NCBI GenBank assembly: GCA_963828485.1
Contig: CAWHEV010000006.1
Coordinates: forward strand, 53,592-117,591
DNA from: an uncultured Chloroflexia bacterium
GTDB taxonomy: Bacteria > Chloroflexota > Limnocylindria > QHBO01
Length of the DNA stretch: 64,000 nt
Direction: 5' to 3'
The position numbers and the translations under genes were made by a program. The stretch's first letter is position 1; the number at the start of each line of letters is the position of its first letter. Under the pieces are notes generated by a model. That model ran no database searches and had not been told where the DNA came from. It worked only from the letters and a program-made list of their open reading frames with translations. This document shows positions 53,101-54,579 of this stretch, piece after piece.

Positions 53101-53676
53101 ATGTTCAGTACCAAGCGACTCGGGCTGCTCTTCGCGGCCCTGCTCGTCGCGACGATGTCACTCGGCATCGTCACCAGCGGCGCGTGGTTTACCGACACCG
53201 ACACCGCGGCCGTCACGGCAACTTCCGGCGGCATCAATGTCGAATGGTCTGGCCCGAACGCTGACAGCTTCACCGTCTCGAACCTGTTGCCGCAGAACGG
53301 CTTCGCCAACTCGCCCAAGCACGCGCTCGACATCTACAACACCGGCTCGTCGACCTCCGCGGTGAAGTTCCGCGTCACCGATGAGTTCAGCACCGAGACT
53401 GCGCCTGGGTTCTACTCGGAGCTATGGGTTCACGTCGAGGAGCTCCATTGCGGTTCAACCTCGGTCGTGCGGGTCGCCTATTCGGGCCTGCTGCAGGACC
53501 TCGAGTTCACCAGCATCGGCTCGAAGTACGACCCGCTGCCGATCAACTTCACCGACTGCTACACGTTCCAGTTCGCGTTGTCCCAGTTCGCCGGCAACGA
53601 GTTCCAGAACCAGACCGCGACGTTCAACCTGCGTCTCGACGCCACCCAGCCCGAGAACCCCGGCTGGTCCGAGTAG
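53101..53676 (+). CDS. TasA/camelysin-like SipW-processed protein
   Basis: K/R n-region, hydrophobic h-region, then TSGA-WFTD...TSGGIN (compare TasA TWA-AFND...ASGTL); NLLP, NTGS and NEFQNQTATFNL motifs. Confidence 0.8.
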   Translation: MFSTKRLGLLFAALLVATMSLGIVTSGAWFTDTDTAAVTATSGGINVEWSGPNADSFTVSNLLPQNGFANSPKHALDIYNTGSSTSAVKFRVTDEFSTETAPGFYSELWVHVEELHCGSTSVVRVAYSGLLQDLEFTSIGSKYDPLPINFTDCYTFQFALSQFAGNEFQNQTATFNLRLDATQPENPGWSE

Positions 53677-53730
53677 ATCCGATCTGTGCCCGGGACGGCT
53701 GCGGGCCGGCGTCCCGGTATCAGCTCGATC

Positions 53731-54579
53731 ATGAACGCTGACGTTCGTCGGACCCTCATCGGGGCCGGAACCTTCGCCATGAGGGCCATGCTGATCGCGG
53801 CGATCGCGATCACGGTCTTCGTGGCGTATGGGCTCATCAACAACGCCTGGTACCACGTCCTCGCGGTACGGGGCGGCAGCATGGAGCCGGCGATCACCGC
53901 CGGCGACCTGATCATCATCAGCCGACCGCCGGAGCAGGTCGAGGTCGGCCAGGTGCTGACCCTCCAGGTGGACGGATCGATCGTCACGCATCGGGTGGTC
54001 GAGGTTCGACCCGACGGAACGTTCGTGACCCAGGGCGACGCCAACGACACGCGGGACGACTTCACCGCGAACGATGTCCACGTCGTCGGCGAATTCCGGT
54101 TCAGCCTGCCGCTCATCGGCATGCTGATCGAACCGATCATCACCGGCGCGTGGTTCAACGATGGGGGCAGCGCGTCGATGCTCGCGGGTTCCGGATCCTG
54201 GGAGCCCGAGGCGATCATGTGGTCGGGAGCAGGAATCACCTGGTCCCCGCCCAGCGAGGAGCCTTCGCCGTCGCCATCCGCGGCGTCGACTGAGGGCCCC
54301 GACGATTCGACGCCGGCCGATGCCTCGCCCAGCTCCTCCCCGTCGACCGACGAGATGTCGCTCGGCGGATCCGGGGGCCCATCGGCTCCTCCGGAGGGAC
54401 AACCGTCCCCCGGCGAGGTCGCTCCCAGCGAGGCCCCGGGCGCAAGCGAAGAGGCTGCTCCGAGCGAGGCGACGCCAAGCGAGGAGTCCGCTCCCAGCGA
54501 GGAAGCGAGCCAAAGCGAGGAGGCTGCCCCAAGCGAAGGGCCTCCGAGCGAGGAGGCTTCTCCGAGCGCGGAGCCGTAG
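53731..54579 (+). CDS. sipW: SipW-type signal peptidase I with C-terminal GAWFND motif and Pro/Ser/Glu tail
   Basis: TM helix, GGSMEPAI (Ser), VTHRV (His), TQGDAN; then TGAWFND and PSEE repeats. Confidence 0.85.
   Translation: MNADVRRTLIGAGTFAMRAMLIAAIAITVFVAYGLINNAWYHVLAVRGGSMEPAITAGDLIIISRPPEQVEVGQVLTLQVDGSIVTHRVVEVRPDGTFVTQGDANDTRDDFTANDVHVVGEFRFSLPLIGMLIEPIITGAWFNDGGSASMLAGSGSWEPEAIMWSGAGITWSPPSEEPSPSPSAASTEGPDDSTPADASPSSSPSTDEMSLGGSGGPSAPPEGQPSPGEVAPSEAPGASEEAAPSEATPSEESAPSEEASQSEEAAPSEGPPSEEASPSAEP
54421..54576 (+). repeat. Degenerate 15-21-nt tandem repeats encoding (A/P)SEE(A)
   Basis: About nine AGCGA(G/A)-containing units: APSEAPGASEEAAPSEATPSEESAPSEEASQSEEAAPSEGPPSEEASPSAEP. Confidence 0.8.

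Follow-up and report, generated by a model that had tools for sequence, protein, structure and literature searches.

TasA-type fibres have come to be recognised in both bacteria and archaea, and the question addressed here is how, outside Bacillus, such fibres are initiated, capped and anchored; TapA, the accessory protein of the B. subtilis tapA-sipW-tasA locus, is not conserved even within its genus. We analysed a stretch of 64,000 nucleotides (the window) from an uncultured Chloroflexia bacterium, in which a gene for a TasA-like predicted fibre subunit is followed by a gene for a SipW-type signal peptidase carrying a tail that resembles the cleavage site and mature N-terminus of the subunit (Table 1). 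The two genes are co-directional, lie 54 nt apart and share a reading frame. The initial annotation of this DNA, made from the letters alone, had proposed a two-gene fibre system with no separate tapA in a lineage apparently other than Firmicutes; the locus does hold a two-gene cassette and no tapA-like gene, and the lineage is Chloroflexota, closest to Candidatus Limnocylindria.

Table 1. Features of the subunit and peptidase genes, in window coordinates (aa, amino acids; pLDDT, predicted local distance difference test score).
Feature	Coordinates	Strand	Basis
TasA/camelysin-like predicted fibre subunit gene	53101..53676	+	191 aa; family matches to PF12389, TIGR04088
Subunit signal peptide, aa 1-28, ends TSGA	53101..53184	+	basic start K5, R6; hydrophobic core; small residues at -3, -1
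Subunit predicted mature N-terminal donor strand, WFTDTDTAAVTATSGGINV	53185..53241	+	near-invariant in subunit family; pLDDT <50 in monomer model
SipW-type signal peptidase I with substrate-like tail	53731..54579	+	282 aa; TIGR02228
N-terminal membrane anchor, aa about 14-37	53770..53841	+	hydropathy; modelled helix
Catalytic domain, aa 38-131	53842..54123	+	homologue conservation; SEC11C alignment
Ser50	53878-53880	+	GGSMEP; near-invariant in 33 homologues
His87	53989-53991	+	VTHRV; invariant in 33 homologues
Asp103	54037-54039	+	invariant in 33 homologues
Asp109	54055-54057	+	invariant in 33 homologues
Amphipathic linker PLIGMLIEPII in place of the usual C-terminal membrane helix	54109..54141	+	hydropathy; homologue composition
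Junction motif TGA/WFND, T138-D144, predicted scissile bond A140/W141	54142..54162	+	conservation; match to adjacent subunit
Copy of subunit N-terminal strand, WFNDGGSASMLAGSGSW, residues 141-158	54151..54204	+	hhalign
Trp-rich segment, EPEAIMWSGAGITWSP, residues about 159-174	54205..54252	+	conserved among close homologues
Acidic Pro/Ser/Glu/Ala-rich low-complexity tail	54244..54576	+	composition; about last 110 residues

The product of the first open reading frame (ORF) is MFSTKRLGLLFAALLVATMSLGIVTSGA/WFTDTDTAAVTATSGG (the slash, here and below, marks predicted cleavage), and its mature part begins WFTDTDTAAVTATSGGINVEW. Its signal peptide ends at the predicted site TSGA/WFTD, already pointed out in the initial annotation and found in this ORF, and can be aligned with that of B. 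subtilis TasA, whose site is TWA/AFND. Going by the matches of its relatives, the window subunit is probably a member of the TasA/camelysin family with a signal peptide of SipW type. The window protein itself scores below threshold against PF12389 (Peptidase_M73; 12.8 bits, gathering threshold 22.5), as does its N-terminus against TIGR04088 (15.3 bits, cut-off 19); among the 29 members of its family, 22 match PF12389, 20 match TIGR04088 (best E 7.5e-4) and 7 match the NCBIfam TasA model. For P0133, which is 54% identical to the window subunit, the PF12389 match spans positions 8-193 of the 196 in the profile and reaches 32.2 bits, above the threshold of 22.5. Two Cys residues are found in every member of the family. 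An AlphaFold2 model of the subunit has a confident beta-sandwich core (residues 45-185), outside which the N-terminal strand is disordered in the monomer, as expected of a strand that inserts into a neighbouring subunit, an agreement that is consistent with such a role and not proof of it.

The peptidase ORF most probably begins at ATG 53731, a start that fits its homologues; an in-frame GTG at 53686 is also possible. The protein matches TIGR02228, the model of archaeal/endoplasmic reticulum (ER)-type signal peptidase I (S26B), over residues 21-131 (65.9 bits, cut-off 51.85), and the profile of its family matches human SEC11C (E 5e-9) and SEC11A (E 6e-8), with Ser, His and the GDxN Asp aligned to those of SEC11C. 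The AlphaFold2 model (a helix at residues 3-35 and a confident core) has SEC11C and SEC11A as its best Foldseek matches, followed by LexA and UmuD, with S. pyogenes SipA at rank 13; a Pfam S24 match of 30.6 bits is clan-level similarity. On these grounds the enzyme, an ER/archaeal-type signal peptidase I that has kept its catalytic residues, is predicted to be active. It falls outside the Bacillus SipW orthologue group, scoring 45.2 bits on the equivalog model NF046067 (cut-off 190). The peak 19-residue Kyte-Doolittle hydropathy of its N-terminal anchor is 2.2 (residues 19-37), and we infer a topology with the catalytic domain outside the cell.

Canonical actinobacterial SipW proteins have an LPYLGY motif followed by a membrane helix and a basic tail. 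In the window peptidase no second membrane segment is seen by hydropathy: the linker that stands in its place, which contains Glu and Pro, reaches a maximum of 1.52, compared with 1.74-1.91 in the canonical C-terminal helices, and the corresponding region in homologues is rich in Pro, Gly and charged residues. Judged by hydropathy and composition, the peptidase has lost its C-terminal membrane helix, and a passenger that starts with the mature N-terminus of a SipW substrate stands there instead. Since the passenger replaces this helix, the peptidase's N-terminal anchor would serve as the passenger's export signal. The single membrane segment, together with the extracellular-type passengers of relatives (see below), places the tail, in all probability, outside the cell.

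The initial annotation had described the motif as followed by 142 residues of Pro/Ser/Glu-rich repeats. The length is right, counted from A140, but only about the last 110 residues are of this composition, Ala included, and tandem DNA repeats, with an 18-nt period, are confined to 54420-54583. The 142-residue tail contains 33 Ser, 25 Pro, 22 Glu and 21 Ala, has a net charge of -27 and lacks Lys and Arg altogether, so that standard tryptic proteomics would miss it. Between the strand copy and the acidic part, the Trp-rich segment follows a pattern (W, a gap of 7-10 residues, then [MV]W.G.G[IVL][TV]W) present also in P0004, P0018, P0028 and other homologues, and is disordered in the AlphaFold2 model. 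By sequence and model, the tail has neither a signal peptide of its own nor a folded domain, and profile searches of the window proteins gave no match to the TapA family. Tails of homologues are likewise rich in Pro, Ser, Thr and Glu and vary in length.

A cleavage-site copy at the peptidase junction

Six residues past the IPxxG-type end of the catalytic domain, the peptidase reads FRFSLPLIGMLIEPIITGA/WFNDGGSASMLAGSGSWEPEAIMWSGAGITWSPP; the motif TGA/WFND lies just where the initial annotation had placed it. Across all six frames of the window, GAWF[TN]D occurs in two places only, the subunit and the peptidase. The 11-nt DNA sequence GGCGCGTGGTT, which had also been noted as shared, has exactly two copies in the window, at 53179 and 54145, with 0.10 expected by chance. 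As a mark of recent duplication we rejected it, the same preferred codons being used for G-A-W-F. At the protein level, the profile of the junctions aligned with the profile of the subunit N-termini in hhalign at 96.2% probability (E 2e-9, 29 columns), from the end of the substrate's hydrophobic core, which pairs with the linker, through the cleavage residues to about position +18. By these comparisons, what stands at the start of the tail is a genuine copy of the cognate substrate's cleavage site together with its mature N-terminus. The likeness can be followed in relatives: in the pair P0015/P0139, encoded on contigs of equal length, the peptidase tail reads WLTDIDEVSASAASGSW and the subunit WFTDSDTVAVTATSGQI, and among the clearest cases is that of peptidase WLTDLDTVSATAGSGSW and subunit WFTDSDTVAVTATSGQI.

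The initial annotation had suggested looking for conservation of the motif after S26B domains, and about 27 of 33 homologues (37-82% identity) do share the junction column [ST]GAW[FLVA]x[DT], with a second conserved Trp about 17 residues further on. Ala at -1 is invariant, -3 is Ser or Thr, +2 is aromatic, and +1 is Trp in at least 90% of 26 junctions. The distance from PxxG to the junction is 9-19 residues in nearly all homologues. A scan with a matrix built from substrates only placed its top site at the junction in the 25 peptidases with the full motif, bar one weak case six residues off; the absolute scores were mostly negative because the subunit family is very uniform, and rank and position were used instead. 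Covariation of +1 and +2 between tail and neighbouring subunit was uninformative, these positions varying too little.

Fused peptidases and a stand-alone relative in other genomes

To see how far the fused form extends, we scanned one genome per species with a trimmed peptidase alignment, and found it in metagenome-assembled genomes (MAGs) of Candidatus Limnocylindria, Anaerolineaceae, Chloroflexia and Acidimicrobiia; the closest fused proteins, at 77% identity, are from Limnocylindria. A wider search, over 1.84 billion sequences that represent clusters at 50% identity, gave 65 matches at E <=1e-30 and 696 at E <=1e-10. Among the top 150 representatives, 118 sequences were usable for a search with a loose form of the motif, which was found 30-75 residues past GDAN in 87 of them (background, 0.087 per search window). 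A hidden Markov model (HMM) built from substrates only matched 20 of the 150 at E <=1, nine of them at E <=0.01, and did so at a narrowly defined place: 19 of the matches lie 37-45 residues past GDAN and one at 71. The same HMM matched none of 83 canonical peptidases. The fused architecture is widespread among uncultured bacteria.

The junctions themselves vary (SGAWFxD, ASEASFADxxSAxMxITVGxW and TGAWLSDVERSSGNLVQAGTW), and the passengers behind them vary far more. Among the top representatives, fused proteins reach 858 residues in total and passengers about 540 residues past the site; the tails of distant representatives are Pro/Thr-rich, combine RTX and PKD, or form large beta domains. In nearly every related locus that we read, a TasA-like gene with a matching site adjoins the fused peptidase, directly upstream of it, and the subunit-peptidase pair often stands in tandem copies.

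Several of these loci have features of their own. At L003 (7915-10416) an 833-aa fused peptidase continues, after ASGAWFSSSASLGASASSGTW, into a beta-rich region of about 570 residues, which matched no Pfam family, and a PKD protein is encoded alongside. In three Acidimicrobiia MAGs (L012, L016 and L078) the tails begin GSGAWH[TV][ED]R and go on to a CFGEC motif, an acidic linker and an Excalibur-like calcium-binding end; an Excalibur domain as such was not accepted for them, the scores of 13.6-16.3 bits being below the threshold of 22. 'Short' peptidases were considered as natural split forms and rejected, the gene at L004 being frameshifted: there (6001-7124), the 143-aa P0031 and the RTX-like gene that follows it are one frameshifted fusion, and the other frame reads ASGAIFSEARTGSQRVSVADAW and, further on, ECAGMAFDQVIVGT.

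A more telling arrangement is found in a Chloroflexia MAG (L008, 7267-9978), where a canonical substrate (ATGA/YFTDS), a canonical SipW and a stand-alone SGA/WFSS protein are encoded together; two pairs of subunit and fused peptidase lie just upstream of this cluster. The canonical SipW has a C-terminal helix and no tail. The stand-alone protein (381 aa, 8833-9978) has its own signal peptide, ending SASGA/WFSS, followed by RTX repeats and two PKD domains. In a comparison with the passenger of the fused protein P0192, the mature part shows 43% identity across 275 residues (E 1e-41); with P0184, another fused protein, the alignment to the passenger starts at the motif (E 2e-31). The passengers of fused peptidases are thus proteins of the same sort as ordinary SipW substrates: the stand-alone form shares with P0192 and P0184 the SGA/WF motif and a homologous passenger, and differs in having a signal peptide of its own and in standing beside a tail-less SipW. 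Going by this homology, the peptidase takes the place of the signal peptide in the fused forms. The initial annotation had counted a tail encoded as a separate gene as evidence against its proposal; such a gene exists here, and it supports the idea instead.

A possible self-processing mechanism and its alternatives

These observations can be brought together, along lines already suggested in the initial annotation, in a scheme in which two genes make up a minimal fibre system of the TasA type, and the peptidase cuts off its own tail, which is released as a starter, cap or attachment piece of the fibre. Sec would insert the peptidase so that both its catalytic domain and its tail come to lie outside the cell. 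The SipW active site would then cut TGA140/W141, in the same or a neighbouring molecule, the narrow spacing of 9-19 residues favouring the same molecule, and an acidic protein of 142 residues beginning WFNDGGSASMLAGSGSW would be set free. By donor-strand complementation, its strand would occupy the acceptor groove of the TasA-like subunit, in the way that the TapA N-terminus complements TasA; having a donor strand and no acceptor fold, such a product could sit at one end of a fibre only. The functional end would be the disordered polyanionic tail, or, in relatives, the RTX/PKD part or a large beta domain. Both the cut at A140/W141 and the insertion of the strand are steps that we infer, and we put the probability of the scheme as a whole at about one half. 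That fusions of this kind are a widespread device, in which the anchor exports the passenger, the enzyme cuts the copy of its cognate site and the donor-strand piece plugs into TasA-type fibres, making the enzyme at once the processing machine and the precursor of a starter or tip subunit, is a broader proposal that we hold more tentatively.

The case for cutting is made by the conserved residues at -3 and -1, by a +1 residue that is Trp, as in the substrates, and not Pro, by the aromatic residue at P2' and by the existence of the passenger as a stand-alone substrate. An aromatic P2' residue makes TasA a substrate of SipW rather than of LepB (PMC10269814).

Several findings weigh against the scheme. 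The loose motif occurs at the same offset in 26% of canonical peptidases, where it probably falls inside the C-terminal membrane-helix region, so that the motif count alone is not specific. TIGR04088, whose use as a check together with Peptidase_M73 had been proposed in the initial annotation, matches 20 of 29 members of the subunit family (22 of 29 for PF12389) but none of 26 junction fragments. Signal peptidases normally position a substrate by its hydrophobic core, and the junction has no proper core of this kind; its topology is also a concern, as the segment ahead of the motif would arrive from the outside face, not as a helix spanning the membrane from inside to outside. In the AlphaFold2 monomer of the peptidase, residues 139-174 stay at pLDDT <50 and the motif is not placed in the active site, a result that is uninformative rather than negative. 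Finally, the subunit fold is weakly tied to solved TasA-type structures: Foldseek gave no match at E <=0.001 for the subunit model, AbpA (7ueg) came at rank 7 with a template modelling (TM) score of 0.33 among otherwise generic jelly-roll matches, and the top 50 did not include TasA. Sequence is therefore the basis on which the fold is assigned.

Strand complementation might also take place with no cut at all. The membrane-bound peptidase would then offer the strand of residues 141-158 to the subunit groove, either as anchor or terminator of the fibre or as a tethered chaperone strand, which would hold a freshly processed subunit until the next N-terminus displaces the strand, as in chaperone-usher assembly. 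The homology of the strand to the subunit N-terminus fits this as well, and internal strands can complement grooves, as the G1 strands of chaperones do in chaperone-usher pili. The missing hydrophobic core may make cleavage inefficient, and a signal-peptidase homologue, S. pyogenes SipA, which is among the structural matches of the window enzyme, is needed for pilus polymerisation. TapA, moreover, has been described as a strand-complementing chaperone that is co-localised with the membrane (PMC10151520). A tail that stays in place, however, leaves the small residues at -3 and -1 unexplained, which belong to the signal-peptide side of the site and would not be needed by a strand alone; nor does it account for a +1 Trp, as in real substrates, where Pro would block cleavage. 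Passengers homologous to the fused ones occur as ordinary SipW substrates, and large variable passengers of up to about 540 residues fit released or distal modules better than decorations at the membrane. We regard an uncut tail as unlikely, while taking it seriously.

Two further explanations do without a strand in the fibre. If the passenger were released and had nothing to do with fibres, the peptidase would be a self-removing export signal for assorted proteins and the strand a recognition element only. The high diversity of passengers would suit such a role, and the conserved region after the cut coincides with the mature side covered by TIGR04088, which could be a recognition determinant; but almost all the loci read have a TasA-like gene beside the fused peptidase, often as repeated pairs, and the strand is the only obvious functional part of the window passenger, in which no folded domain lies beyond the strand and the Trp-rich segment. 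To this explanation we give little credence. We give still less to a built-in pseudo-substrate, lying in the peptidase's own cleft for regulation (keeping the enzyme off until subunits compete, for instance) and playing no part in fibres. It is true that the motif mimics cleavage residues, that 9-19 residues from the end of the catalytic domain is a distance suited to intramolecular binding, and that the related S24 peptidases LexA and UmuD bind their own cleavage regions. The likeness to the substrate nevertheless runs on for about 18 residues past the scissile bond, which a mimic in the cleft would not need, the diverse folded passengers would have no explanation, and the AlphaFold2 model does not dock the motif.

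Against this background, the self-processing scheme can be compared with known systems. As in the B. subtilis tapA-sipW-tasA locus, a dedicated ER/archaeal-type signal peptidase gene stands beside the gene of a probable TasA-family subunit, and the sites share small residues at -3 and -1 and an aromatic P2' (TWA/AFND and SGA/WFTD). In that system, SipW cleavage exposes residues 44-57 of TapA, which form the minimal unit that biofilm formation needs, and the TapA N-terminus is donated to TasA (PMC10151520). A second product with a short N-terminal strand that SipW exposes and that complements TasA is thus known there (PMC10151520, PMC9674648), and the window locus would resemble it in making one of its own. 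The differences are that there is no tapA gene, that the strand is fused to the peptidase C-terminus, replacing the second helix, with no signal peptide of its own, that the tail has neither an immunoglobulin-like domain nor sequence similarity to TapA, and that the lineage is Chloroflexota, the peptidase scoring 45 bits on the Bacillus SipW model with its cut-off of 190.

TasA-superfamily subunits assembled by strand donation, as the scheme would have it for the window locus, are found in the archaeal AbpA/AbpB bundling pili, in AbpX loci and in the haloarchaeal Tafi system, with its TafD peptidase, TafG, TafF anchor and TafC tip (PMC9245690, PMC12337348, 10.64898/2026.01.04.697558). AbpB has been proposed to start archaeal AbpA fibres in the manner of TapA (PMC9245690). 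In these systems, too, the accessory tip, starter or anchor proteins consist of a complementing strand and variable domains, and the loci often include a gene for a dedicated signal peptidase I. Their accessory proteins, in contrast, are separate genes with signal peptides of their own, and the only peptidase fusion reported is with a DUF5305 accessory subunit (Anaerolinea thermophila), not with a substrate-like strand and passenger. LexA, UmuD and lambda cI (S24) share the fold and clan of the window enzyme and have a cut site within their own chain, but use a Ser-Lys pair and an N-terminal site in the cytoplasm, whereas the window enzyme has Ser/His/Asp and a C-terminal site on the extracytoplasmic side. 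S. pyogenes SipA (LepA; PDB 4n31) is a signal-peptidase-fold protein recruited for fibre assembly; it works with sortase-linked pili, whereas the window protein keeps its catalytic residues and has a substrate-like tail.

We found no description of a peptidase-substrate fusion in the literature. If the scheme is true, a peptidase that carries the starter strand would be a compact candidate answer, for Chloroflexota and Acidimicrobiia, to the question of how fibres are started and attached, and, as far as we could find in the literature, the first signal peptidase known to double as the precursor of its own substrate. For annotation, the fusions mean that many metagenomic proteins labelled 'signal peptidase I', 250-850 residues in length, in fact consist of two parts.

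Other features of the window

Three features flank the locus. A Cys-rich ORF of 60 aa (52412-52594) has weak matches, all below cut-offs, to the metallothionein MymT and to zinc-ribbon families. Upstream of the subunit gene, at a distance of about 240 bp, lies a perfect direct repeat (52830-52862; two copies of ACTACACCTAACC with 20-bp spacing), which may be the binding site of a regulator; it was not found in 81 related loci. Downstream of the peptidase gene, at 54635-55823, a DAO-type flavin adenine dinucleotide (FAD) oxidoreductase gene is split by a +1 frameshift near 55296-55300. Its orthologue at L001 aligns with frame 1 over residues 1-214 and with frame 2 over residues 213-387, the split being either a sequencing error or the mark of a pseudogene.

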